From positions 32,001 through 96,000 of the forward strand of contig JAVRCV020000065.1 of NCBI GenBank assembly GCA_034530615.2: a stretch of DNA of 64,000 bases, written 5' to 3'. Below are positions 1 to 61,889 of the stretch, one piece after another. Numbering within the stretch: the first letter of the stretch is position 1; every line of letters begins with the position of its first letter. The notes under the pieces are model-generated. The model was given only the letters and a program-made list of their open reading frames with translations, had not been told where the DNA came from and searched no databases. A program made the position numbers and the translations under genes. This DNA is from Aulosira sp. ZfuVER01 (GTDB lineage: Bacteria > Cyanobacteriota > Cyanobacteriia > Cyanobacteriales > Nostocaceae).

Positions 1-3000
1 TCTGTAAGCGATCGCTTTTGATAATGCCCGTTTAAAGCATCAATTGCATTATTCAGAATATTGAGAAATGCTTGATTTAATTGTGAAGCATAGCAGGCGA
101 TGGGGGGCAATTTGGCATAATTTTTAATTACAGTAATTTCTGGATAATTGAGATTTGTAATTAACCGCGACTGTAACAGCATTAACGTACTATCTATACC
201 CTCATGGATATCTACAGACTTAATATCAGCTTCATCGAGTCGAGAGAAGTTTCGTAAACTAAGCACAATATTACGAATACGGTTAGCTCCCACTTTCATA
301 GAATCTAAAATTTTATGTAAATCTTCTACCAGAAATTCTAAGTCTATATCTTCTTGCGTTTGCTGAATTAACGGTGTCGCTTGAGGATATTCTTGCTGAT
401 AAACATTAATCAGTTGTAATATAGATGCAATATAGTTATTAGTAGGTTCGATATTGGCGTAAATAAAATTAATCGGATTATTAATTTCATGAGCAACCCC
501 AGCCACTAATTGCCCCAAGCTAGACATTTTTTCAGATTGTATAAGTTTAGCTTGTGTAACTTTTAGTTCACGTAAAGTTTGTTTCAACCGAATATTTTTT
601 GCATTTAATGCTTGGGTTCTTGCAGCTACTTTATCTTCTAAATTTGCATAAAGCTGGGCATTTTCTAAAGAAATTGCTGCTTGGGAAGAGAGAAGTTTGA
701 GGATTTGTAACCTATCAGGGGCAAAAGCATTAACTATCAAATCATTTTCTAAATAAAGAATACCTATTAGCTTTCCTTGATTAACGATAGGAGTAGATAA
801 TATAGATTTTGGTTGATATTTAATGATATATGGATCGGCAGAAAAATTCGTGTTTTTTATAGCGTCATGAATTAATAAATATTCTTTAGTATGAGCTACA
901 TAATTAATTAAACTAACTGGTACTTCCTGAGTTTGGGTAATAGGAATAGATAGTAGTTCACATGACTGATGATTTTGGTATTGCGCTACAAGGTTAAAAT
1001 TCCCATTTTCTTGGAGAATCAACGCAGCTTTGTTACCTCCGACATTTTCTAACATTACCTGCATCAGAATTTGGATTAACTTATCTATCTGAATTTCTGA
1101 GCCAATAGCTAGGGATGCTTTAGTAACAGTTTCCAAATCCAATATTGCTGTCACACCAGTACTAGTGGAGTCAACAATTGCATTAGTAATTAAAGCATTG
1201 CTATCGCTACTATTAACACTAACTTGTTTCTGATTGAGAATTGGTAAAAGTAACTGGTGATAGGATTTTGCTAAATCCTCAACTTTGACATTAGCGCCCC
1301 AACGGCTGTAACAGTAGTAAGCATCAATTAGATAGGTTTGGGCAATTTTTTCTTTACCAGCAGCCAAGTAAAATTTAGCAGCAAGTTCATTAGCTATTGC
1401 TTCTTCATGAATAAATTCATTTACCTTAGCGCCTTGAATGGCTCGATCATAAAGTTCCATAGCTTGCCAATTATGGTCTAAAATTCTTGCCTTCTCTGCT
1501 TCTACTAAATCGTACTTGTGTTGATAGTTCATTGGTGCATGAAATGCCCAATGATGCATTTGTTTCTGATTCACTAAAACTTGTTGCAGATATTGCTCTT
1601 GCTCAATACTAGGCTGGTTATTATATTCAGCTAGTAGCGCTAGAGAATAATAAAAATTGTGTTGGCTAACAGAAACTTGTCCAGCAACAGAATTTACATA
1701 TTGTTTGCCTAAACGTGCACTTTCAACTGCACTAATTGATTGGTTAAATAAATAAAATAATATGGTTTTTGCTAAAAATACACAAAAAAGTGAATTATAA
1801 TTATTTGTTTCTATAAATAACTGTAATAGTTCCGATTCATTAAAGAAAACACCATTTAATTCATGTTTATTGGCTGTTGGTTCTAGCAGATTAGATATAA
1901 ATTGCAACCAAATTTTTTGCAAATCGACAGTCCACTGCTGTTTAAGCTTGTGCATCAAGATCCTAGATGCTGCTAATTGCTGAGATACAGATGCCAAATT
2001 TTCTCCAGCAAACAACATGTGTAAGTAATGATTTGAAGAACAATAACCTACATATTCTATATCTCCATTTTCCAATCCAGATTGCACACCTTCTACTAAG
2101 GGGTCTATAGTTGTTCGTAGATGCTGTTTCCAAAATTTAATATTTGCATTCCATACCAGGAATAATCTACATTTAAGTTCTTTAGCATTCAACTTATCCA
2201 ATAAACTCAAAGCTACTTCGCCATAGCGATATCCAGCATCAATTTCTGATAACATACCGCATAGTAGCAAGCCATACAAAACATATCCATAAGTAGAAGC
2301 TGATGAGTTTCCATGCCTTATAGACAGATGTATCATTGTAAATACAATTGATGGCAGTAATGCGGGATTCGCAAAATAAGCCGCAGAAATCATGCTAATT
2401 AATATACGCATAGCAGCAAGTTGATCGGGAGCAGTCATTTTTGGTAAGTTGATTAAATCTTCAACATCCAAATTTTGCGGAGGTGCTGACTCCAGATTTA
2501 CTTCCAGCATATCTAATAGTTTTAGACCTGTATCAATAGCTAATTGCATTTGTATTTGAGCCATATACATCTGCATTTGAGCTTCATAAGCTTTTACTTG
2601 ATCGAGTAGCCTATTTGCATTTTGCTTGACTATTTCTGCGTAGATTGCTGCTTGTTCAAAGTTGATATTTAAGTATTCTGCTTCCATTACTTCTATATAT
2701 AGATCCAATGTCAGCTGATACTGATGTTGCCAACTATCTGTTTCCAACAATCGCAAACCCATCTGCAAATATCTAATAGCAGCTTCATAAGCAGTCGCTA
2801 ATTTAGCTTTATTACCTGCAATCAGGTTGAGTTGAGCTAATTCGGCTTTTTCTAATTTACTAGTAATTAAGTCAACGCCAATATTGAGTTGATTAACTAT
2901 TTCAAATATATTGTCTTCCAGCTTTTCTAAACTCGTATTTTTTAAAAGAGTCCGCCCAATTTTAAGGTGTATTGCTTTGTTATCTGATTCTGAGATTAGA

Positions 3001-5135
3001 GAGTACGCTGCTTGTTGTACGCGATCGTGGAGGAACTTATAGTTAATGCTGACTTTTTGGTCTAAATCATGAACTTCTATTTCTGAGCGAAAACTGGCTT
3101 CAGATTGCTCATCTGTATACAATTTATAAATTTCATCTGTGGGTAAAATTAACCCTTCCTGCAAAACTTGCCATAAATTAGCTCCTATTTCATAATGAGA
3201 TTGTTCGGAAATTAGGGATAAGAGATTTAAATCAAATTTATTTCCAATACAAGCAGCTATTTTTAATGTTTCTAAAGTTAATCTAGGCAACTTTTCTAAG
3301 AGACTAACTAAAAGCTGAACAACATCATCACTTTGGTATAAGATTTCTGCTTCTTTAAGATTATATTGCCAATATCCTGCTTGAAAATCAAAATTAATTA
3401 TTTCATTATTATGCAATGATTTTAATAATTGATTGCTAAAAAAAGGATTGCCTTGGGTTTTGTTAAAGACAAACCTTGTTAAAGGAGCCACTATTGAATC
3501 TGGACATCCTAAAGTATCTCCTATCAAATGACTGATATGAATTTGATCTAAAGGTTTTAAAATAATTTGATTGACTATAGCTTGAGTTTTATAAATCACA
3601 TCTAAGGTCATAAGTAAGGGATGCCCAGAAGTAACTTCATTATCTCTATAAGCACCAATGAGTAACAGATATATAGAATCTGTCTCACTCATTAATAATT
3701 GAATTAATTTTAATGATGCAGAGTCTGCCCATTGCAAATCATCTAAAAAAATGACTAGGGGATGTTCTTTAGTTGCTACTACTTGAATGAATTTACTAAA
3801 TAGCAAATTAAAGCGATTTTGCCCAGCAGTTCCTGTGAGTTCAGGAATTGCTGGTTGTTGACCAACTATCAATTCCAATTCAGGAATTACATCAATTACG
3901 ATCCCTGCTTGTTCTCCTAATGCTGATAAAATATGCTTTTTCCACTCTTGCAATTGATCTGTGCTTGCAGTAAGTAATTGCCCTATAAAACTACGAAAAG
4001 CTTGTACGAATGCAGAAAAAGGAAGATTGCGCTGAAATTGGTCGAATTTACCAGCAATAAAATAACCGTTTTGTCTAATAATTGGTTTATGAACTTCATT
4101 AACAATAGAGGTTTTACCAATACCAGAGAACCCAGCGATTAACATCAATTCTACATTCCCTAAACTAACTCGTTCAAAGGCATTTAATAAAGTGCTAACC
4201 TCGGTTTCTCTGCCATAAAGTTTTTCGGGGATGAGGAAGCGATCGCTTATATCTTTTGCTCCCAATTTCAAGTCTGTAATTTCACCCTGACTTAACAACA
4301 TTTGCTGACAGATTTCTAAATCATGTTGGAGTCCTCTAGCTGTTTGATAACGCTCCTCAGGAGACTTTGCCATTAACTTCAGAATTATGTTGACAATAGT
4401 CTGAGGAATATTGATATTAAGTATTATTGGATTAATAGGTTCCTGTGCAAGATGGCAATGTACTAACTCAACAGGACTCGTGCTATTAAAAGGTAACTGT
4501 CCTGTCAGTAATTCATAAAAAGTCACGCCAAGAGAATAAAAGTCTGTACGGTAGTCTATACCGCGATTCATTCTGCCAGTTTGCTCTGGAGATATATAAG
4601 CCAGAGTTCCTTCTAAAACATTTGGGCTTTTAATCTCAGTATTTTCCTTAGGTAAGATAGAAGAAATACTAAAATCTATCAATTTAACTTGCTTAGTTTC
4701 TGGATTAATTAAAATATTTTTTGGTTTAATATCTTTATGAATAATTTTATTTTTATAGAGGCACTCTAAGGCAGACGCAATTGCAATAGCAATTGGGAGA
4801 AACTCATTTATATATAGAGGTTGAGAGTTCACATATTGACTGAGAGCAATACCACCAAAATCTTCTAATATCAAGGCATAACTATTGCCGTAGGTTTCTA
4901 GCCCATAGCATTTAATAATATTTGGATGGTCGATATAGCTGGATATAGTATACTGATTTTTTAATAAAATTAAGTCTTTGAGTTGCGGATAAGTTGTATT
5001 CAAAACTTTAATAGCAACTGGTTTTTGCGACTGTATTTGGTTAGCACGATAGACGATACTTCTAGCACTAATATGCAGTGTATTGCTAATTTTATAACCA
5101 GCAAGCGTGTTAATTTGTCCAGGTGTCTCAATCAT
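1..5135 (-). CDS. Ser/Thr kinase + AAA ATPase + GAF + histidine kinase hybrid (HstK-type), 3' end beyond window start
   Basis: Spot-translated by hand from ATG at 5135 (MIETPGQINTLAGYKIS...). Motifs: IIHKDIKPKNIL, KLIDFSISS, EGTLAYISPEQTGRMNRGIDYRTDFYSLG, Walker A AGFSGIGKT, VIFLDDLQWAD, GAF GILYLEND, H-box GQLVAGVAHEINNP, N-box ILNNAIDAL. Same frame at base 3. Absent from the ORF track, consistent with no stop inside the window. Confidence 0.92.
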   Translation of the reverse strand, partial: MIETPGQINTLAGYKISNTLHISARSIVYRANQIQSQKPVAIKVLNTTYPQLKDLILLKNQYTISSYIDHPNIIKCYGLETYGNSYALILEDFGGIALSQYVNSQPLYINEFLPIAIAIASALECLYKNKIIHKDIKPKNILINPETKQVKLIDFSISSILPKENTEIKSPNVLEGTLAYISPEQTGRMNRGIDYRTDFYSLGVTFYELLTGQLPFNSTSPVELVHCHLAQEPINPIILNINIPQTIVNIILKLMAKSPEERYQTARGLQHDLEICQQMLLSQGEITDLKLGAKDISDRFLIPEKLYGRETEVSTLLNAFERVSLGNVELMLIAGFSGIGKTSIVNEVHKPIIRQNGYFIAGKFDQFQRNLPFSAFVQAFRSFIGQLLTASTDQLQEWKKHILSALGEQAGIVIDVIPELELIVGQQPAIPELTGTAGQNRFNLLFSKFIQVVATKEHPLVIFLDDLQWADSASLKLIQLLMSETDSIYLLLIGAYRDNEVTSGHPLLMTLDVIYKTQAIVNQIILKPLDQIHISHLIGDTLGCPDSIVAPLTRFVFNKTQGNPFFSNQLLKSLHNNEIINFDFQAGYWQYNLKEAEILYQSDDVVQLLVSLLEKLPRLTLETLKIAACIGNKFDLNLLSLISEQSHYEIGANLWQVLQEGLILPTDEIYKLYTDEQSEASFRSEIEVHDLDQKVSINYKFLHDRVQQAAYSLISESDNKAIHLKIGRTLLKNTSLEKLEDNIFEIVNQLNIGVDLITSKLEKAELAQLNLIAGNKAKLATAYEAAIRYLQMGLRLLETDSWQHQYQLTLDLYIEVMEAEYLNINFEQAAIYAEIVKQNANRLLDQVKAYEAQMQMYMAQIQMQLAIDTGLKLLDMLEVNLESAPPQNLDVEDLINLPKMTAPDQLAAMRILISMISAAYFANPALLPSIVFTMIHLSIRHGNSSASTYGYVLYGLLLCGMLSEIDAGYRYGEVALSLLDKLNAKELKCRLFLVWNANIKFWKQHLRTTIDPLVEGVQSGLENGDIEYVGYCSSNHYLHMLFAGENLASVSQQLAASRILMHKLKQQWTVDLQKIWLQFISNLLEPTANKHELNGVFFNESELLQLFIETNNYNSLFCVFLAKTILFYLFNQSISAVESARLGKQYVNSVAGQVSVSQHNFYYSLALLAEYNNQPSIEQEQYLQQVLVNQKQMHHWAFHAPMNYQHKYDLVEAEKARILDHNWQAMELYDRAIQGAKVNEFIHEEAIANELAAKFYLAAGKEKIAQTYLIDAYYCYSRWGANVKVEDLAKSYHQLLLPILNQKQVSVNSSDSNALITNAIVDSTSTGVTAILDLETVTKASLAIGSEIQIDKLIQILMQVMLENVGGNKAALILQENGNFNLVAQYQNHQSCELLSIPITQTQEVPVSLINYVAHTKEYLLIHDAIKNTNFSADPYIIKYQPKSILSTPIVNQGKLIGILYLENDLIVNAFAPDRLQILKLLSSQAAISLENAQLYANLEDKVAARTQALNAKNIRLKQTLRELKVTQAKLIQSEKMSSLGQLVAGVAHEINNPINFIYANIEPTNNYIASILQLINVYQQEYPQATPLIQQTQEDIDLEFLVEDLHKILDSMKVGANRIRNIVLSLRNFSRLDEADIKSVDIHEGIDSTLMLLQSRLITNLNYPEITVIKNYAKLPPIACYASQLNQAFLNILNNAIDALNGHYQKRSLT

Positions 5136-6829: not shown

Positions 6830-6996
6830 AGAGATCGTCTAAGTCAATTCTTCAAAAAAAATTTTTGATAAATTTTCAGTGTCTTTCCGGATAGACTCTA
6901 TTTCCCTAGTAGAGAGTAATGGTAGATGCACCCTGGTTAAGCCCTGGAGAACACTCTGGGGCATTTTTTATTTTTGGGGTATTTGGTCATTTGTCC

Positions 6997-13230: not shown

Positions 13231-13656
13231 TTATGCTGTCCAATCTTCTATTCGCAGGTTGGGAACTTGAGAAAAATCTTGATAATTACATGTGACCATA
13301 ATGCTATTTGTAGACAGAGCAATCGCAGCAATACGAAGGTCTTTTTGCAGCCTTTTCTTATTGAGTTTTGGGTGTTGTTTCAACAGGCTTTCGTCAGAAG
13401 CATTTGCTGTGGCATCAAAGTTTAATATGACGACGCTCTTAAAATAATCTGTTGTTTCCCAAAGTTTTGTATAGACTATAACCAAATTTTCAGCTTGAGA
13501 TGGATCGTTAAGCTTACCCATCCACCCGTTGAAAATTTCCTGAACTGTAATAATTGTGATAGCTACAGACGATGTTTGAGAAACTTTTGTAATAACTTTG
13601 TGATTACCTTCAAGGAACAGGGACACATGATCTGTATCGAGTATCCATCTGCTCAT
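13231..13656 (-). CDS. PIN-domain (VapC-type) toxin
   Basis: ILDTDHVS, TVQE, DLRIAAIAL, VTCNYQDF; 4-bp overlap with the upstream small gene. Confidence 0.85.
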   Translation of the reverse strand: MSRWILDTDHVSLFLEGNHKVITKVSQTSSVAITIITVQEIFNGWMGKLNDPSQAENLVIVYTKLWETTDYFKSVVILNFDATANASDESLLKQHPKLNKKRLQKDLRIAAIALSTNSIMVTCNYQDFSQVPNLRIEDWTA

Positions 13657-13988
13657 ACATCATTTGCTGAAGATTCTTGTTCGGTTTCTTGTCTTTGTGC
13701 TCTCATGTCCTCAGCAATTTCTACAAATAGAGGATTGTCCTTAAACATTCCTGCAAATTTCATCCAAGGATGGGGATTTGAAGACAGTTCCATTTGCAAA
13801 GAAACAATTTCTGCTTTAGCTAAACGTTCTGCCAGAAGTTGACGTATTCCATCCAATGCTTGCTGGCGGGTGTCAGATGTAATTCGACATTCAGGAATTT
13901 CTAGTACGATCGCAGTCTCTTTGCCAGTTGTATCTTGTTCTAAAAGAATATTAAAGTCTAAGATGTTTGCTGATTGGGAAGACATCAT
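13653..13988 (-). CDS. putative antitoxin, HicB-like N-terminus
   Basis: 111 aa; VLEIPECRITSDTRQQALDGIRQLL then HPWMKFAGMFKDNPLF; translationally coupled to the PIN gene. Confidence 0.7.
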   Translation of the reverse strand: MMSSQSANILDFNILLEQDTTGKETAIVLEIPECRITSDTRQQALDGIRQLLAERLAKAEIVSLQMELSSNPHPWMKFAGMFKDNPLFVEIAEDMRAQRQETEQESSANDV

Positions 13989-16865: not shown

Positions 16866-16895
16866 TTTTTAGTTATTTGTCAATACAAACGCCTG

Positions 16896-16925
16896 GTTAG
16901 GGGTTTAGCAATGCTAAACCCTTAC
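16896..16925 (+). terminator. hairpin after the CobW gene (REP-like/terminator)
   Basis: GGGTTTAGC-AAT-GCTAAACCC stem; similar to 45989-46017. Confidence 0.5.
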
Positions 16926-16950
16926 GAAAAATCCATATAGCAATCCGTAG

Positions 16951-17263
16951 AGGAATAAATGCGTAGGCACGAATTGCTTGCCGCTAGGAATCGCTCTAAT
17001 GCATTAACAATACAAGCCGATGTAATGGCATAACATACTGGTGCATTAACATTGCAAAATGTTGTGTTTAGTGGATTTAACCCGATTAAAAACAGTTGTA
17101 ATGTTGATGAATCTAACGATCGCCTGTTTTGTGGTGAGAGTGCGATGTCTTGACAAGCCACTGCGCGTCTACACAATTCCTTCCACAGCAGAATTTCAGC
17201 AAGGAATAAATGCGATCGCTCTAATGCATTAACGTAACACGCCTATGTGTTGACATAATAGAC
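16951..17263. repeat. imperfect direct repeat pair with short elements inserted into HIP1
   Basis: AGGAATAAATGCG[26 nt]ATCGCTCTAATGCATTAAC at 16951 versus uninterrupted AGGAATAAATGCGATCGCTCTAATGCATTAAC at 17202. A second insert lies at 17147-17171. Confidence 0.75.
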
Positions 17264-17306
17264 CGATCGCCTGCTTTGTGGTAAAAATCTATCAGCTTGC
17301 CAGTAA

Positions 17307-20012
17307 CTATTTTATGCTTGGTACTTCATCCTTAACCTGTTCAAATTTAAATCCACTAACTGGGAGTCCGCCTTTAGTTGGAACTACTCTGACAACAAGA
17401 GGTTCTTTTTGGCTATCACCATTCCGATCAAACTGGAGTGGATATCCTGAAGTTTCGCTCGATGGAAGATTAACAGATCTGAGTTTTTCTAAAACAGTTG
17501 GACGAGTGGGATTGTTTGATGATATGTTTTTAATAGCTGCAATAAAAGCCTGAGTCGCATCATAAGCTGTAGCTGTGCGCCAGCTTATTTGCCCTCCCCA
17601 TGTTTTTCTAGCGTTATCTGCAAATTCTTTTGAATTCTGCTCTTCTGCAAACCAATTTACAGATATCACCAAACCTTCAAAAGCTGATTTCAAAGTGTCC
17701 TGATTATACAAAGTGCCTCCTCCTAACAGAGGCAATTTTTTGCTGATCTGAGCACGGGCAATTGCAAGTGCCACAGAAGTTAACTTTGTATCCGGAAACA
17801 AAACAATTGCATCTGCTTTATCTTCATTTTGAATTTTTAAAATTTCAGCAGATGTATCCAGTGAAGCATCACTCAAATCCTGAGTACGGATAACTTCTGC
17901 GTTCTTATTCTTAAACAGGTTTTCAAACTGTTCTTTTACGTCCTTACTATAAACATCATCAGGATTGTAGAAAATAACTACTCTTTTATAGCCATTCTTG
18001 ATAGCATAATCTGCTAACTTTCCCATCTCTACTTTGGTAGACAGTACTGTTCTAAAGAATACTTTGCCCTTTAACAAAGTACTTGCGCTACCTGGAGATA
18101 GCATTGCTATACCAGCCTTTTCATACTCAGGTAATGCAGCTTGACTGCTTGTACTAGTATAATGTCCAATAACCCCTATAATATTTTGGTTTTTAATTAA
18201 CTCTCTAGCAACTTTTATAGCTTGAGTTTGGTCATTGCTATCATTAGCAATTACTATATTTAAAAGTCGCTTATTCTCTTTACTTCGTAACTCATTAAAA
18301 TCATCTTGTGCCTGTGCAACTCCTCGCAAGAGTTCTTGAGAGATCCCAGATGCTCTATTAGTATCTGGTAAAACAACTGCCAGCGTAATTGGGTTGCCTT
18401 GTTGATATGCTCTAGCATTGTTGTAATAAATTCGCAACTCTGGATCGTAAGGAAAGGCTTGTCTAGCTTTTTTAAAATACTCAACAGCTTGGGTATAATC
18501 TTTGTTTTCAAAAGCTTTAAAAGCCTGAGTGCGACTTGGATTTTCACTTCCACCAAACAAAGTATGCTCACCTTCACTAAGGAATGGCAATCCTGGCTGT
18601 TGCTGTTGTGGTTGTTCCGTTATTAACGTTTGAGGGTCTGACTTATTATTAACAACCGGAGGTTTTTCTCGTGATTGCCAGTATAACCACCCAAGAAGCA
18701 ATGAAATTAGTAGCACTGGAGCAAGTGCTGAGACAATACGCTGCTGCTTTCGTGTTACTAATTCTTGGCTAGCATATAAAAATTGATAATCTTCAACAAG
18801 CAACTGTTTATTTTCTGCCCATGCTTGAGCTTGTCGTAATTTTTGCCCTTGCAAGAGATGCGATTTATTCTGACGACTAGACTCTAGCCATGCTGCTAAT
18901 TCCTTTGCATAAGGTCGCAAATTCGCTAACTCCTGATTTACCCAGTTGTTGTCAAAAACAGACTCATAAATACAGTTAGAAACTCTTAACTTACCATTTT
19001 GCTTAACTACCAATCCCGACAGGCGCAATTCTATTTGCCCCGGACTGTTATCTTCTTCAATTTCTCTTTTTCGTAAAATTTGTTCATATAATTCAAGCAA
19101 CAGATCCGCAGGTTGCTTGTTGCTGAAAATCCGATCGCGTATTGTTCTCAAATGCTCAGGATCATCCTGAGATTGCCAATTTTGGATAATCCGCGATTGC
19201 ACTAATTCCTCTACAGACAATCCTTGCTTATCATCTAAAATAAATTGACAAAGCTTTTGGGTAAGAAAAGGTTGTCCACCAGTCCATTCCAAAACCTCTC
19301 GTAGCTTTTCTTGAGGATTACTAACTTTACCGACTAATCCCGTAGCTAAAGGCTCCGCTTCATCTAAATCAAAACCTTTGAGTTCAATGGCTTGGCCAAT
19401 ATTAAAAGGTGTGCGCTGTTTATCTTGAATCAAATCAGAGGGAGTTGCTACTCCTAAAAGACAAAATGTCAGGCGTTTATATTCTGGTTTATCAGCACGT
19501 TGGTTATAGCAAGCTCGAATCAAAGCAAAAAAATCCTCAGTTGAAAAACTTAGGCTGAGAACGCTATCAATTTCATCTACAAAAATGATAATTTTTTTAT
19601 GAATAGAGGTTAGCATCTCCTCTTCAATAAACTTGCCTAATCGCTGCAATGAAGGCAGTAATCTTTGCGCTTTCCACCATCGGTCTAAATCAAAATTCTC
19701 ATTTAGTTTTAAACTCTTAACCAGCTCGTCAATCACACCTGCATACCATTGATCAGGAGTAACATTATGAGTTCCGATCAAAGTAAGATCAATACCAGCA
19801 CAAGCAATTCCCTCTTCCTGCAACTTTTGCATGGTTTTTACCCGCAAACTTGATTTACCCATCTGCCGCGAGTTTAGGACATAACAGAATTCCCCTGCCT
19901 TCAACTTGTTGTATAAGTCGTCATCTGCCTGCCGCATGACGTAGGTAGGAGAATCAGGAAGTAAAGTACCCCCAACTTGATATTCATAGTTTGGGTTAGG
20001 CGCTGGATTCAT
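17307..20012 (-). CDS. AAA_35 NTPase - TM helix - TPR-like - periplasmic (LivK/branched-chain amino acid type) ligand-binding protein
   Basis: [18 protein letters not shown], Walker [10 protein letters not shown], Walker [53 protein letters not shown]-terminal [30 protein letters not shown]. Confidence 0.85.
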
Positions 20013-20112
20013 GAGTTATTACCAATGCGGTTGCACAATAATCATTTTCAGGCTTTCCTTTCTGGTTGCAAAGAGGAACTGGGGTAAATTTCTGGGAAAT
20101 TTGAAATCATAA

Positions 20113-21681
20113 CTACAACCCGAAGCGATCGCAAAAATACAGGCGATACAAATCACACAAGGGCAGAACATCATTGCCTGTGTATTTCACCAATCTCATA
20201 TTGCGTAACTTAAATGCTTTATCAACGCCTATTCTAACTGGCCTATTGGCAGCGACTACTTGCTTCATAGCTCTCATAAGTTCTGGATTATCCTGCAAAA
20301 TTGACCAATGGCGCAGCAGGTGGTCGCCGTATAAACCTTCTTGAGTGGGAGCAATTTCCAATAGTTCTTTCAACGTCAGTTCGCGTTGCGCTATTTTATC
20401 CAGTGCCTCTTTTACCAGCCAAGGATGTCCACCAACCATCGCCATAAGTTGAGCAACTTGCTCTGCATTCCAAGGAAGTTGGAGGCGCTGGGCTAAATTC
20501 TGCACCTGTAGCTGATTTAACTCTGGTATTTCAATACCCTTCCCCACGTTGAATGGCGATTTATGTGTATCTATAGGGATGAAATCTTCTTTGGAGTAAG
20601 CAATAACTAACCGTAACCTTTGCCAATTAGTATTATCTCTGCCCTTCTCATACCAAGAGCGTAGTAAGGGAAGAAAGTCACGAGCAATTTGATGAGAGAA
20701 AATTACATCAACGTTATCCAATCCTAAAACCAGGGGACTATTGATTGCTGGCAACAAATATTGTTCAAAGTAGTTTGTACAGTCTTTGTTCGCACTCAGT
20801 GTACCTTTCCAATTCTCAGCCAGCTTATCTGGTATATTCAATTCCTCGGCTATGCTGCTACAAACCCACTTTAAGAAATGTTTCAGCGTACTGAACACTC
20901 TTGTTTCTGGCTCTTGAAAGTCCAAACGTACTGCTTGATAGCCTTGCTGAGTCTTCCCATAATTTAGAATCTGATACATTAAGTAGGTTTTGCCCCATTG
21001 CAAAGGCGCTCTCAACCGAATTAATGCCCCAGGCCTCTTTACCTCCCTGTAGCAATCAGCATAAAAAGCCGTATCGAAAAACGGAAATTCTACATCTGAT
21101 GCTGTTTCTAGGTGTAACAAACCCTCTAAATCCGACCAATTTTCTAGCACCGTAGCCAGGGGTAAAGCTAATGCGCCTTCTGTATTGTCATAAGCGGCAA
21201 TTATGCCAATAACTCGTTGTGTCGCCGCATTAAATACAGGCGAACCACTATACCCACCTTGCACCTGTTGCGAATTCGCCTTAACTCGCAGCCGCAACAT
21301 TGGTAAGCTTCTAAATTTAGACTGGGGATTCATATCGGTAATCGTGCCATCAATTGAAGCCCCTTGGGGAAAATCCGATCGCCCATAGCCAATAGACAAA
21401 AATCGATCCATCGGCTGAAAATTAACAGCTAGGGGTACCGAAGCACCTTGATAACCAGGTAACTGCAAAATGGCAAAATCATCACAGGTGCGATCGCCTA
21501 AATAAACCAAATCCACCCTTTGCCCATTGACTCGCACGTTTTCCCAACCGCCAGTCGCTTCAACTACATGGGCGCAGGTAAGTAAGTGTCCTTGTGATGA
21601 TATGAAAAAGCCTGTACCCCGAATGCTATTTTCCGGAGTGGCGATCGCCACGGTACAAGCTTTAACTAAGTCCCAACTCAT
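20113..21681 (-). CDS. trypsin-like serine protease fused to AAA_35 NTPase
   Basis: GTGFFI, LTCAHVV (His), DDFAIL (Asp), GGYSGSPV (Ser). C-terminal RAPLQWGKT, LVLGLDNVD, SPFNVG, MVGGHPWLV. Confidence 0.87.
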   Translation of the reverse strand: MSWDLVKACTVAIATPENSIRGTGFFISSQGHLLTCAHVVEATGGWENVRVNGQRVDLVYLGDRTCDDFAILQLPGYQGASVPLAVNFQPMDRFLSIGYGRSDFPQGASIDGTITDMNPQSKFRSLPMLRLRVKANSQQVQGGYSGSPVFNAATQRVIGIIAAYDNTEGALALPLATVLENWSDLEGLLHLETASDVEFPFFDTAFYADCYREVKRPGALIRLRAPLQWGKTYLMYQILNYGKTQQGYQAVRLDFQEPETRVFSTLKHFLKWVCSSIAEELNIPDKLAENWKGTLSANKDCTNYFEQYLLPAINSPLVLGLDNVDVIFSHQIARDFLPLLRSWYEKGRDNTNWQRLRLVIAYSKEDFIPIDTHKSPFNVGKGIEIPELNQLQVQNLAQRLQLPWNAEQVAQLMAMVGGHPWLVKEALDKIAQRELTLKELLEIAPTQEGLYGDHLLRHWSILQDNPELMRAMKQVVAANRPVRIGVDKAFKLRNMRLVKYTGNDVLPLCDLYRLYFCDRFGL

Positions 21682-21690
21682 GACAATTTA

Positions 21691-22035
21691 TTAATTGTTT
21701 TCTTTTGCTGCCAGGTTCCACGTTATTTTCACCTTAAGTGATGCTTGACCACTAGACTCCACTACATAAACTGAGCCTTTGGTAGTAAAATTCACCCCAA
21801 ACTCAACTTCTCCGCTTACGGGTTGTGATTCTTTCTGTAATATTTGAAATGCCTTTGTAATTGGGCGACACCCGCGAACAATTAAATCTTTAACCGCATC
21901 GAAGCTACCCTCTACTTTTTCCATCGGCAACTCACCAGGAGCAGCTACATGGCCTACAGATTCTTCTGGTATCTCTACTGCTACTAAAATTGTGCCGCCA
22001 TCTTCTGTATTGAGTTCTAAAAGTTTACGAGCCAT
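21691..22035 (-). CDS. Trypco1 (trypsin co-occurring, CU044_2847-like) small protein
   Basis: 114 aa; EDGGTILVAVE ... EVEFGVNFTTKG ... ASLKVKITW pattern; ends 9 bp upstream of the trypsin gene. Confidence 0.75.
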   Translation of the reverse strand: MARKLLELNTEDGGTILVAVEIPEESVGHVAAPGELPMEKVEGSFDAVKDLIVRGCRPITKAFQILQKESQPVSGEVEFGVNFTTKGSVYVVESSGQASLKVKITWNLAAKENN

Positions 22036-22194: not shown

Positions 22195-23340
22195 ATGAAT
22201 TCGCAAACTTCTCGCTCTGACAAAATTTTGGTTGTAGATGATTCTCCAGATAACGTGTTTTTAATCAAAACAATTTTGGAGGAAGAAGGCTACACAATAA
22301 GCACGGCAGAAAATGGTGTTTCGGCTTTAGCACAACTAGAAGCATCTCCTTGTGACTTGGTGTTGCTGGATCTGATGATGCCAGGAATGGATGGTTACGA
22401 AGTTACTAAGCGTATCCGTGATAATGCTTCGATGCAGCAATATATCCCAATACTGCTGATTACTGCTCACGATGCGCCGAATGTTGCGAAAGGATTAGAT
22501 TTAGGCGCTGATGATTTTATCCGCAAGCCGGTAACGGTAGATGAATTGCTGGCGCGAGTGCGATCGCTCTTAAGGTTAAAACACAGTATTGATGAACGTG
22601 ATGAAATTGCTCGTCAGCGTGAAGATTTCGTCTCCCGCCTCACCCATGACTTACGCACTCCCCTAGTAGCCGCAGATCGCGTACTGATGCTGTTTCAGCA
22701 AGGTGCTTTGGGAGCGTTGTCTCCGCAAATACAGGAGGTGATTGCGATCATGGCACGTAGCAATACTAACCTGCTGGCGATGGTCAATACCTTATTGGAA
22801 GTCTACCGCTTTGAAGCTGGGCGCAAAACCTTGGCGTTTCAACCAGTGAATCTCCGCCAACTACTAGATGAAGTGGTAGGAGAATTGATGCCTTTAGCTG
22901 AAGCAAAATCACTGTCAATGAATTTGGTAGTTGCAGATGAAACAACCATTAGTAACACAATGGGCGATCGCTTAGAATTACATCGCTTATTTACTAACCT
23001 TATCGGTAATGCGATCAAATTTACTGACTCTGGCTCAGTAAATATCCGCCTTGCTTCTGCACTTGCAAGTGGCAAAAGTCATGAATCTCCTACTTCGGAA
23101 AATTCCACTTTCAGTGACTACATTATCATTGAAGTAGAAGACACAGGACCAGGTATTTCCATTGCAGAACAAGCCACTTTATTTCAACGATTTCGCCAAG
23201 GAAGTCACAAGAGTTCCGGTAGTGGACTAGGACTGTATCTTTCCCGTCGAATTGTTGAAGCTCATGAAGGTACAATTCGAGTAAAATCTGAGTTTGGTAA
23301 AGGTAGTGTGTTCATTGTTATGCTACCTGTTAAATCGTAA
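22195..23340 (+). CDS. hybrid response regulator-histidine kinase (REC-HisKA-HATPase)
   Basis: ILVVDD, LLDLMMPGMDG, LTHDLRTPL, NLIGNAIKFT, DTGPGI, GSGLGL. Confidence 0.92.
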   Translation: MNSQTSRSDKILVVDDSPDNVFLIKTILEEEGYTISTAENGVSALAQLEASPCDLVLLDLMMPGMDGYEVTKRIRDNASMQQYIPILLITAHDAPNVAKGLDLGADDFIRKPVTVDELLARVRSLLRLKHSIDERDEIARQREDFVSRLTHDLRTPLVAADRVLMLFQQGALGALSPQIQEVIAIMARSNTNLLAMVNTLLEVYRFEAGRKTLAFQPVNLRQLLDEVVGELMPLAEAKSLSMNLVVADETTISNTMGDRLELHRLFTNLIGNAIKFTDSGSVNIRLASALASGKSHESPTSENSTFSDYIIIEVEDTGPGISIAEQATLFQRFRQGSHKSSGSGLGLYLSRRIVEAHEGTIRVKSEFGKGSVFIVMLPVKS

Positions 23341-27055: not shown

Positions 27056-29035
27056 ATGGCAAATCACTGGGCAATTACTATTGGCATCAATCAATATCAT
27101 TTATTTCAACCTTTAAGTTGCGCTCAAGCCGATGCCGAGGCGCTCCAAGACTTTTTGGCTACAGAGGCAGGTTTTATACCCCAACACTGTCTGCTGATGA
27201 CAGACACTTCGCCGCCGCTTAGAGACAAATCCACCTATCCTACAAGGGAAAATATCCTGCTGTTATTAGAGGATTTGGCAGCTTCATATTGGCAACCGCA
27301 TGACCATGTATGGTTGTTCTTTAGCGGTTATGGCATCAACTACAAAGGACAAGATTATTTAATGCCAGTGGAGGGAAACCCCGATCTCGTGCAGGAGACT
27401 GGCATAGAACTGCGATCGCTAATGCAGAGTCTGCAACTGACTGGGCTGAATGTATTCCTACTGCTGGATATCAACCGGGCTTTCGGTACTCAAGCAGATG
27501 CCCCCGTTGGACAAGAAACGCTGGAACTTGCTCAAGAACTACAACTAGCAACAATTCTTTCTTGCCAACCAGAGCAATTCTCCCACGAAAGCCGCGAACT
27601 AGGCCACGGATTCTTTACAGCAGCGTTGTTAGAAGCTTTGCGTTCTGGTCGTGGCAGTAACTTGGTAGATTTAGAACGCTACCTGAGCAATCTCACCCCA
27701 CAATTGTGTCAACATCATTGGCGACCGACACAAAACCCGATCGCGGTTATTCCATCTCAGCAGCAGAATATCTTGCCGCCATTGAGAACCAACAGTATAC
27801 CAACTAAAAGCGAAGTAGAATCCGTTATTTTTCCCGAAGAATCTTTTGCGGTTGCACGTGCAGCACCTTCCCTAGCCGCAAATTCCGCCAAAACTTCACA
27901 TAATTTGCCAAGAACGGCGACACCTAGAGAATTCCAAGGAGTAGAAACTACTGTTAGCCCCAAAGCCAAGCGTACAGCAGTCAGCGAGAAATTGGAGCGC
28001 CAACCAGCCCAAGGCTTAACTGGTAATGTAGTCTCTCAGGCGCTTCTTAACCCAGATCGGCATTTCAAACAGCAACCCCAGATGCTCCCACCTCCTCAAG
28101 AGGTGAATGCTGGGGAACGATCTATTCCTGATTCTTCACCACCTTTCATTTCCCAAGCACCTGTAACTCAGACAAAGACTCCATTGTGGAAACAGTTTTT
28201 ATGGTGGATGGGAGGCAGCTTATTAATATTAGGTTTAGTCGCAGTAGTCTTTCTTCGCAATCAGACACAATTTAGATCTGCTGAAGTATCTAAAACATCA
28301 CCTAATACTGCTACTAATGAGACAAAAGACCTCAAGAATTTACCAAATGCTCGCTCTGTCTCCAACTCCTCTGTACCAACTCAACCCAGCAAACCATCAA
28401 ACTCGCCACCACCCGTCAATTCCCAATCACAAAAGCGGAATAAAGCAGTTTTAGATCTGGCGAAAATGTCCCTGAGGGAAACTCAGGCTAGCGATCTCAG
28501 CTTGGCGATCGCCACGGCTCGCAAAATTCAAGCAGGTGAGCCGCTTTACGAACAAGCGCAAGAGGATATAAAAATCTGGAGTCGGATGATTTTAGATTTG
28601 GCAGAAGGTCGTGCCCAGCAAAGACAGTATGCCAGTGCAGTGGCGGCGGCGCAATTAATTACCAAAGACGAACCACTTTATCCCAAAGCACAAGCTCTGA
28701 TTAACCAATGGCGATTAGAAGCCAAGCAGTATGTTACTAACAAAACTCTTTTAGATGCGGCTAATGCTTTAATTAAGCCAGGACAGGCATCTACATATAA
28801 TCGTGCGATCGAAGTTGCCAAGAAAGTTCCACCAGGTCAACCAGGCTTCGATACAGCACAAAAATCAATTAATAAATGGAGTGACAAAATTTTGGATATA
28901 GCGAAAAATCGCGCTGTCCAAGGGGAACTCAATACAGCAATTGAAACTGCGGCTTTAGTGCCAGAGATGACATCTGCTTATGAAGATGCGCAAGAAGCCA
29001 TCCAAAAATGGCAGGTAAGGCGGATTAAAAATTAG
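27056..29035 (+). CDS. caspase-family (peptidase C14) pseudo-orthocaspase with TM and C-terminal helical repeats
   Basis: WAITIGINQY; FFSGYG (His to Tyr); LLDINR (Cys to Asn); HGFFTAALLEAL; TM FLWWMGGSLLILGLVAVVFL. Confidence 0.85.
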   Translation: MANHWAITIGINQYHLFQPLSCAQADAEALQDFLATEAGFIPQHCLLMTDTSPPLRDKSTYPTRENILLLLEDLAASYWQPHDHVWLFFSGYGINYKGQDYLMPVEGNPDLVQETGIELRSLMQSLQLTGLNVFLLLDINRAFGTQADAPVGQETLELAQELQLATILSCQPEQFSHESRELGHGFFTAALLEALRSGRGSNLVDLERYLSNLTPQLCQHHWRPTQNPIAVIPSQQQNILPPLRTNSIPTKSEVESVIFPEESFAVARAAPSLAANSAKTSHNLPRTATPREFQGVETTVSPKAKRTAVSEKLERQPAQGLTGNVVSQALLNPDRHFKQQPQMLPPPQEVNAGERSIPDSSPPFISQAPVTQTKTPLWKQFLWWMGGSLLILGLVAVVFLRNQTQFRSAEVSKTSPNTATNETKDLKNLPNARSVSNSSVPTQPSKPSNSPPPVNSQSQKRNKAVLDLAKMSLRETQASDLSLAIATARKIQAGEPLYEQAQEDIKIWSRMILDLAEGRAQQRQYASAVAAAQLITKDEPLYPKAQALINQWRLEAKQYVTNKTLLDAANALIKPGQASTYNRAIEVAKKVPPGQPGFDTAQKSINKWSDKILDIAKNRAVQGELNTAIETAALVPEMTSAYEDAQEAIQKWQVRRIKN

Positions 29036-54473: not shown

Positions 54474-54558
54474 CGGAGAGGGGGAGATTCGAACTCCCGG
54501 AGGTTTTAGCCTCATCCGATTTCAAGTCGGACGCAATCGACCACTCTGCCACCTCTCC
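54474..54558 (-). tRNA. tRNA-Ser (anticodon TGA)
   Basis: Reverse complement GGAGAGGTGGCAGAGTGGTCGATTGCGTCCGACTTGAAATCGGATGAGGCTAAAACCTCCGGGAGTTCGAATCTCCCCCTCTCCG; long variable arm, TTCGAAT T-loop, no encoded CCA. Confidence 0.96.
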
Positions 54559-61820: not shown

Positions 61821-61889
61821 AAGGAACCGCCCGAACATAGTCCGGGCGGAGTGTGGTGTGAGGAGTGAACGGAAACATGCGTCTCCGCT
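61821..61889 (-). ncRNA. yfr1: Yfr1 small RNA
   Basis: Reverse complement AGCGGAGACGCATGTTTCCGTTC-ACTCCTCACAC-CACACTCCGCCCGGACTATGTTCGGGCGGTTCCTT: the conserved ACUCCUCACAC motif between two hairpins, located between guaB and trxA. Confidence 0.93.

Follow-up and report, generated by a model that had tools for sequence, protein, structure and literature searches.

What might a cyanobacterium gain from encoding, side by side, a small Trypco1 protein, a trypsin fused to an AAA_35 ATPase, and a second AAA_35 ATPase joined through the membrane to a periplasmic binding protein (PBP) domain? The question is raised by positions 17307..22035 of a 64,000-nucleotide stretch of Aulosira sp. ZfuVER01 (Nostocaceae; assembly GCA_034530615.2, contig JAVRCV020000065.1, positions 32,001 to 96,000 of the forward strand; hereafter the window), in which an earlier note, made from the sequence alone, had suspected a ligand-gated protease system. 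The answer we favor, at a probability of roughly 45%, is that the trio encodes a split outside-in receptor of the STAND class (ATPases that act in signal transduction and have numerous domains) that would activate the protease, which in turn would cleave Trypco1 into a membrane-damaging, cell-killing effector. The three open reading frames (ORFs) and the parts of the two larger products are as follows.

21691..22035, minus strand: Trypco1 gene (PF19493), 114 aa; Pfam E = 5e-17, low-confidence AlphaFold2 model
20113..21681, minus strand: trypsin-AAA_35 gene (ORF2), 522 aa; Pfam, AlphaFold2 model with a predicted local distance difference test score (pLDDT) of 92
within 20113..21681, minus strand: trypsin-like serine protease domain, residues 22-160 of ORF2, triad H38/D68/S145; Pfam Trypsin_2, E = 2e-16
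within 20113..21681, minus strand: A-type AAA_35 STAND module, residues 208-517 of ORF2, with Walker A APLQWGKT, a GGHP motif and D322-N323; Pfam AAA_35, E = 3e-117
17307..20012, minus strand: AAA_35-transmembrane-TPR-PBP gene (ORF3), 901 aa; Pfam
18951..19967, minus strand: B-type AAA_35 STAND module of ORF3, Walker motifs intact; Pfam AAA_35, E = 3e-34
18681..18737, minus strand: single transmembrane helix, residues 426-444 of ORF3, N-terminus predicted inside; hydrophobicity and Lys/Arg count
18399..18515, minus strand: TPR-like segment, residues 500-538 of ORF3; TPR_19, 22.2 bits, below the Pfam cut-off of 25
17412..18392, minus strand: LivJ/LivK-type periplasmic binding domain, residues 541-867 of ORF3; Peripla_BP_6, E = 9e-37

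The lengths, shared orientation and spacing of the ORFs (9 bp between Trypco1 and trypsin-AAA_35, 100 bp between trypsin-AAA_35 and ORF3) are as the earlier note had given them, and its domain calls (Trypco1, Trypsin_2, AAA_35 and Peripla_BP_6) were reproduced with Pfam. The small protein scores 62.8 bits against PF19493, for which the cut-off is 24.6, matches NF041216 as well, and is encoded 9 bp upstream of a Trypsin_2 gene, the kind of neighbor by which Trypco1 was named (Kaur 2020, PMC7159879; for this and the other papers cited, we refer to the portions of text accessible to us).

The protease is intact, as first proposed: of 100 aligned ORF2 homologs (from 120 matches), 87 keep H38, 90 keep D68 and 90 keep S145, the misses being mostly gaps in rows that carry TIR only. 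ORF2 has no transmembrane segment. In its AlphaFold2 model (mean pLDDT 92), the AAA_35 part resembles the archaeal ATPase 2qen (Z = 20.0, root-mean-square deviation 3.9, 305 aligned residues), followed by 2fna/SSO1545 (Z = 18.6) and the plant nucleotide-binding leucine-rich repeat (NLR) receptor WRR4A (Z = 17.6). The 280-305 residues that align to these three structures cover the P-loop, helical and winged-helix layout of STAND proteins, with G418-H-P420 as the GxP motif. As modeled, the AAA_35 module of ORF2 is thus a STAND-type fold, and the NLR likeness previously suggested for AAA_35 is supported at this level. What had been overlooked in the ATPase pair is that the protease-bearing member lacks the Walker B glutamate, having D322-N323 in its place while its Walker A motif keeps GKT. 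This is not a private lesion, since Asp-Asn is conserved in 24 of 100 homologs, Glu being present in 65. In P-loop enzymes, loss of the Walker B glutamate slows hydrolysis and leaves nucleotide binding in place. The B-type partners keep both the Walker A lysine and the Walker B glutamate in 74 of 74 A-B pairs, and we infer that the B subunit is the ATP-hydrolyzing switch and the A subunit a hydrolysis-poor carrier. A subunits without the glutamate accompany 17 of 19 PBP pairs versus 11 of 55 others (the 11 include two gapped rows and one broken PBP locus). We do not accept a specific link between this loss and PBP receptors, because the A clades that show the trait also include non-PBP pairs, and these lack the glutamate as well.

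ORF3, assigned to STAND by its AAA_35 match and GGQP motif, was compared with 70 homologs, namely those of 120 listed matches that have both AAA_35 and PBP. Its only hydrophobic segment, residues 426-444, has a Kyte-Doolittle score of 2.2 (best elsewhere 1.27), and a segment scoring at least 1.6 lies at positions 400-480 in 67 of the 70. Lysine and arginine are richer before the helix than after it in 61 of 70 and the reverse holds in none, which places AAA_35 in the cytoplasm and the TPR and PBP parts outside, in agreement with the one-helix topology proposed before. The outer domain matches solved HAAT binding proteins (E = 5e-15), and an ordinary binding protein of an ABC transporter was considered and rejected: PRK15404 gives 58 bits versus 477, and the domain is fused through the membrane to a cytoplasmic AAA_35. 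HAAT proteins of the LivJ/LivK type are free or lipid-anchored and have cognate permease and ATPase genes, neither of which applies to ORF3; of the 39 window ORFs that reach 150 aa (7 of which have no family at all at E = 1e-5), none matched an ABC permease or ABC ATPase family, as the earlier note had observed for the neighborhood. Pocket residues are strongly conserved in the ORF3 family (S620 and S642 in 70 of 70, Y688 in 68, Thr or Ser at 643 in 65), and position 643 aligns with the threonine of the PAST motifs in solved binding proteins, which we take to contact the alpha-amino and carboxyl groups of the ligand in LivJ/LivK. Judging from these residues, the outer-domain family likely binds an amino-acid-like molecule. 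The Aulosira copy itself has a private Ala643, with Thr in the seven slot orthologs checked.

Does this pairing of ATPases extend beyond Aulosira? AAA_35 domains fall into two types, A, which stands C-terminal to a variable output, and B, which stands N-terminal to a variable sensor. The B gene has an A gene directly upstream of it at 52 of 70 scorable metagenome loci (of 78 B loci, 8 had too little upstream DNA), at 9 of 12 PBP loci, and at 10 of 10 loci of the genomic slot described below. The Aulosira genome holds three adjacent A/B pairs, one separated pair and a lone A gene. Distances between A and B domains are correlated (r = 0.69), a value that we set aside because linkage alone explains it. 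Of 401 genomes sampled from the phylum, 126 have a B-type match (two candidates per genome were scored, and 150 of the 225 matches were listed); the scaffold is therefore common. At the 12 AAA_35-PBP loci fetched from this sample, the outputs are CHAT-A (6), HTH-like-A (1; "HTH-like" is our own label), a broken A (2), EAD4-A on the opposite strand (2) and none (1). Among three metagenome PBP loci, one (L179) carries Trypco1 and a trypsin of another lineage and two carry an HTH-like A, and elsewhere the TPR-PBP module is fused to caspase, CHAT and other STAND domains. This neighborhood comparison supports the swapping of sensors and effectors that had been anticipated.

Two further arrangements were seen in passing. 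At L029:9548-13075 and L067:4747-8250, a B-type AAA_35 is followed by five transmembrane helices with Ig-like and 3-keto-disaccharide-hydrolase-like (lectin fold) parts, a sensor type that is unannotated. At L070 (G033:C173), one trypsin-TIR-AAA_35 gene is flanked by three B-type genes with differing C-termini, one of them with a TRADD-like N domain, and several sensors may here share one output.

The trio itself recurs. A genome scan returned 12 related loci, with Nostoc, Anabaena, Amazonocrinis and Cyanocohniella among the relatives named, every one divergent from the same hybrid kinase. This gene and the opposite edge of the Aulosira cassette are:

22195..23340, plus strand: hybrid response regulator/histidine kinase, divergent from the trio; conserved anchor of the variable STAND slot
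16883..17282, no strand: rearrangement junction, with a dispersed hairpin repeat (about 16883-16938) followed by DNA matching the kinase-ureC slot of relatives

Nothing in the comparison of this slot across relatives points to the kinase as a member of the trio system. The trio is intact at 4 of the 12 loci (L024, L026, L028, L030; 70-79% identity), and the same receptor is joined to a different Trypco1/trypsin lineage at L179, so the recurrence on which the earlier proposal had been made to depend is borne out. At L029 the multi-transmembrane sensor replaces the PBP; L025 has a stop codon inside Trypco1, and L027 and L033 are frameshifted or deleted, although some of these breaks may be assembly errors. 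Four Nostoc loci (L031, L032, L034, L035) have TIR-AAA_35 without trypsin, with a glutamate at the TIR catalytic position, and two of them keep an intact PBP partner. Among 14 genus mates, 13 could be read (in the other the kinase lies at a contig end), and their slots contain a lone NACHT gene (7), Trypco1 and trypsin (3) or no STAND gene (3). In the three Trypco1-trypsin cases, the partner is a TIR-AAA_35 pair, whose sensor is peptidoglycan-binding in G012 and multi-transmembrane in G009, or NACHT (G014). For 9 of 10 genomes of other genera, the queries used found no STAND gene beside the kinase; the tenth (G019) has a transposon-interrupted version. The Aulosira copy is a mosaic, its Trypco1 and trypsin being 94-95% and 87-90% identical to those of genus mates, and its A domain 47-52% identical to theirs and 72-85% identical to Nostoc-type alleles.

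The cassette had first been read as an insertion between a CobW gene and the kinase, of which only the kinase side stands. The cassette follows CobW in none of 11 genus mates, the ureC gene that normally borders the other side lies on another contig of the Aulosira genome, and intergenic DNA at 16,950-17,280 matches the kinase-ureC slot of relatives, so CobW became a neighbor by rearrangement. As a separate observation, the kinase-ureC interval is a STAND hotspot in its own right (L083, L085-L087, L089, L091, L092), with a lone NACHT-NCH2 gene in 7 of 13 genus mates and, in the empty ones, small genes that look HNH-like by eye.

If the protease acts on Trypco1, where would it cut? The AlphaFold2 model, whose mean pLDDT of 56 is low, predicts a beta-hairpin, a disordered loop, an amphipathic helix (moment 0.86) and C-terminal beta strands, with alternating strands at residues 74-83 and 100-107; it has no match in the PDB at E <= 0.001. 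The region of interest is the loop:

21904..21969, minus strand: Trypco1 loop, residues 23-44, with a [VI][GAS] motif; motif alignment and model

We predict from this motif that Trypco1 is cleaved after Val30 (between ESVGHV and AAPG), with Val27 as the alternative; a cut after Val30 would leave the amphipathic helix exposed at the resulting N-terminus. Across cyanobacteria, 88 distinct Trypco1 proteins were collected. The gene shares its orientation with a trypsin gene in 41 of them and diverges from a caspase gene in 30, and 17 are unlabeled. Once the unlabeled proteins, a broken copy and proteins of 70% or higher identity had been left out, 26 trypsin-linked and 28 caspase-linked proteins remained. 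The [VI][GAS] motif is in the loop of 26 of 26 trypsin-linked proteins (shuffled mean 14.7) and 16 of 28 caspase-linked ones (15.6); for [RK][GD] the counts are 21 of 28 among caspase-linked proteins (12.1) and 3 of 26 among trypsin-linked ones (9.4). A held-out set (67 found, 30 unlabeled or ambiguous, 37 labeled, 28 after dereplication) gave 20 of 23 trypsin-linked (15.6) and 5 of 5 caspase-linked (2.6), with p of about 0.03 each. In three of four Streptomyces Trypco1 proteins read by eye, the loop contains Val-Gly.

These residues fit known preferences, because STAND-fused trypsins cut their targets (MBL and SsPepco) after Ile (Evans 2025, bioRxiv 10.1101/2025.11.14.688446) and orthocaspases prefer basic residues (PMC6426788). 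The same preprint groups Trypco1 and 2 as Pepco and shows that SsPepco assembles into 9-10-mer barrels and that, once a STAND-fused trypsin has cut it after Ile97, it kills E. coli. Going by its features, this published activation by cleavage probably concerns Trypco2; in six actinobacterial Trypco2 proteins read by eye we found an N-terminal helix and, before the tail, Ile in five and Val in one. The earlier note had left Trypco1 as substrate or adaptor; the Evans 2025 precedent and the loop motif favor the substrate, and an effector too, over the adaptor. Independently of the cleavage site, gene layout follows protease class in the labeled set, caspase-linked Trypco1 being divergent from a caspase-nSTAND1 gene in 30 of 30 cases and trypsin-linked Trypco1 co-oriented in 41 of 41 (L013, L014 at G000:C74/C41; L117-L178). 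The profile PF24393 (Pepco), which does not match the Trypco1 protein of the locus, describes a third family, which lies upstream of a gene for a caspase-like protein of about 494 aa (L324-L343; G000:C25:116168-116518); the GA/GG-R/K-G motifs in its N-terminal loop resemble, by eye, the caspase-class site.

Taking the observed domains, triad, topology signal, fold, gene order, recurrence, input/output swapping and Walker B glutamate loss as its fixed points, the mechanism we favor would run as follows. A periplasmic cue would meet the outer PBP domain of ORF3, upon which the B subunit would switch and recruit A, the two ATPases co-assembling into a putative hetero-oligomer. Clustering would activate the trypsins on the A subunits, which would cut Trypco1, presumably after Val30, and the cut protein may damage the membrane as a pore, a role carried over from SsPepco. 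The cell would then die, and we suppose a defensive purpose, the filament giving up one cell when its envelope is attacked by phage or predator. A bolder version, which we regard as possible if somewhat doubtful, is that the AAA_35 pairs of cyanobacteria make up a large class of NLR-like receptors that are split and span the membrane, in each of which an active membrane STAND with a swappable extracytoplasmic sensor would co-assemble with a pseudo-ATPase STAND with a swappable output; in the Aulosira allele, a periplasmic small-molecule cue would fire the protease and removal of an N-terminal propeptide would open the Trypco1 pore, a mirror of the C-terminal activation of SsPepco.

Several observations weigh against this cell-death reading. 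Trypsin is the output at none of the 12 AAA_35-PBP loci fetched from the phylum sample, which makes the trypsin a minority partner of the receptor, a point that the earlier note had missed; 21 further A subunits include 11 Ser/Thr kinases, 2 TIR, 1 cyclase and 1 CHAT. With outputs that span CHAT, HTH-like, kinase, cyclase and TIR, the A/B pair is a scaffold for inputs and outputs in general; a role in cell death is read only for the trypsin allele, where it rests on Trypco1 with trypsin and on their exchange with TIR and NACHT. In 18 of the 70 metagenome cases, the B gene has no A gene directly upstream. The loop motifs are short and were picked after viewing the alignment, and they amount to a single evolutionary contrast, because the protease-class label changes once on the tree. 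An alignment of Trypco1 found no profile match to one Trypco2 sequence (probability 1%), and the tail after the last Trypco1 strand has 8 aa and neither Ile nor Val, which occur in the tails of only 2 of 26 trypsin-linked proteins; lacking both the match and a C-terminal Ile tail, the pore role is an extrapolation. Nor did the slot exchange trypsin for TIR four times, as we had considered: the four TIR-only alleles retain the 5' end of Trypco1, marking a single deletion, likely from an ancestor with Trypco1 and trypsin-TIR-AAA, a form common among homologs. With the PADLOC 2023 models, matches were weak or confined to the generic protease domain, and no catalogued antiphage system was recognized. 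Finally, the ligand pocket of the Aulosira copy may be altered, as Ala643 could weaken ligand binding.

The prevalence of kinases, cyclases and HTH-like domains on A subunits, together with an outer domain of amino-acid-binding type whose pocket serines are conserved, could also be explained if the same receptor pair had a non-lethal output, the protease processing Trypco1, or some different target, within a response to nutrients or in development, for instance to amino acids in the filament-shared periplasm. Many STAND clades are indeed not defensive (Lee 2026, PMC13581612), but a slot that turns over among NACHT, TIR and Trypco1 with trypsin, and frequently decays, fits a conflict locus, and in the accessible text of PMC7159879 and Evans 2025, Trypco proteins otherwise figure solely as parts of conflict systems; we therefore hold this explanation unlikely. 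Conversely, the death module may be real and its trigger something other than a small ligand, with TPR-PBP binding a foreign or damaged envelope macromolecule, or with a cytoplasmic trigger and the outer part as scaffold. The slot does swap its outer part for peptidoglycan-binding/SPOR or multi-transmembrane Ig-like/lectin-like modules, characterized bacterial STANDs detect phage proteins through TPR (PMC13581612), and Ala643 points the same way; against this, S620, S642, Y688 and Thr/Ser643 are kept across the family, as expected for a bound small ligand, and we consider such a trigger decidedly improbable.

It may also be asked whether the protease-Trypco1 unit and the receptor work together at all, or are neighbors by recombination in a recently shuffled, decaying or uncoupled allele. 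The mosaic origin, the rearranged flank, the breakage of 5 of the 12 slot loci (which also counts against the favored mechanism), the private Ala643 and the non-canonical Walker motifs of the A subunit speak for the latter. Yet the three frames, the triad and the Walker motifs of B are all intact, the trio is kept at 70-79% identity in four other genomes and recurs with another protease lineage, and the Asp-Asn Walker B motif is shared by 24 of 100 homologs, so that we judge an uncoupled allele to be very unlikely.

Elsewhere in the window, a caspase-domain gene 5 kb away (27056-29035) has the catalytic motif SGYG and is likely a pseudo-orthocaspase; it is kept in genus mates and apparently unrelated to the slot. 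A PIN-like gene with a small upstream gene (13231-13988) looks toxin-antitoxin-like by eye, with no Pfam match at a useful E-value, and a low-GC Ser/Thr kinase-AAA_16-GAF-His kinase gene (3-5135) runs off the window. RNA matches at 6920-6970, 54474-54558 and 61825-61888 are NsiR1, a tRNA and Yfr1.

In the accessible text of the papers considered, characterized bacterial STAND receptors sense phage proteins in the cytoplasm. If our preferred reading of the trio is true, bacterial innate immunity would gain extracellular sensing through a two-subunit outside-in STAND with a protease-gated death effector, and regulated cell death in filamentous cyanobacteria would have a concrete route. With the Val30 site predicted, the activation of Trypco1, a widespread family, becomes testable by a few truncations. 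The sensors belong to an orphan family, annotated in databases as ABC substrate-binding protein, and the protease provides a direct readout in the search for their ligand.

How does the trio compare with known systems? The AAA_35 pairs are presumably the MNS Npun2340/2341 family, which reportedly consists of adjacent cyanobacterial gene pairs; on this assumed identity, both are tandem pairs of related STAND ATPases of filamentous cyanobacteria, the nearest solved folds of AAA_35 being 2qen and 2fna. MNS Npun2340/2341 is named as a STAND clade in PMC8195603, and in the literature searched we came upon no study of the AAA_35 scaffold and no account of the MNS family that ascribes to it modular effectors and sensors or a PBP sensor. 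The two-gene nSTAND2 system (Kaur 2021, PMC8195603) pairs one active STAND with an eroded one that bears a variable effector, in a proposed hetero-toroid. It resembles the trio in having two STAND genes with the effector on the eroded one, and differs in its GT4/HEPN effectors and absence of a membrane sensor, whereas the Aulosira A subunit keeps the Walker A lysine and has lost only the Walker B glutamate; the trio proteins have no nSTAND2, GT4 or HEPN match in Pfam at E = 0.1. EACC1-caspase systems (Kaur 2020, PMC7159879) likewise include a small protease-activated partner gene, some with a transmembrane segment and extracellular PBP, but they use caspase and EACC1, have the PBP fused to the protease and read as an effector, and contain no STAND pair.

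Also close is SsPepco-SsAvs4, in which one cytoplasmic protein senses a phage portal, whereas the Aulosira trio divides sensor and protease between two STAND genes and places the sensor outside the membrane. The described layout of SsPepco (N-terminal helix, Ile97, 2-kDa tail) fits Trypco2, itself listed as an Avs-associated effector (Lee 2026, PMC13581612), and Trypco1 differs from it in an N-terminal hairpin and a loop site. The earlier note knew of no experimental description of the combination; our searches of literature and supplements found no account of the architecture either, their coverage stopping short of figures, preprint supplements and subscription papers (Fig. 5A of Evans 2025 may show it), but Pepco-type proteins had already been tested, and transmembrane STAND ATPases are named among Pepco sensors, without detail in the text, by Evans 2025 (10.1101/2025.11.14.688446). 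Although the combination was thus not found described, each of its parts has a precedent, the Trypco-trypsin pair, the tandem genes of the presumed MNS Npun2340/2341 family, the two-gene active/eroded STAND and the transmembrane PBP on EACC1 caspases.

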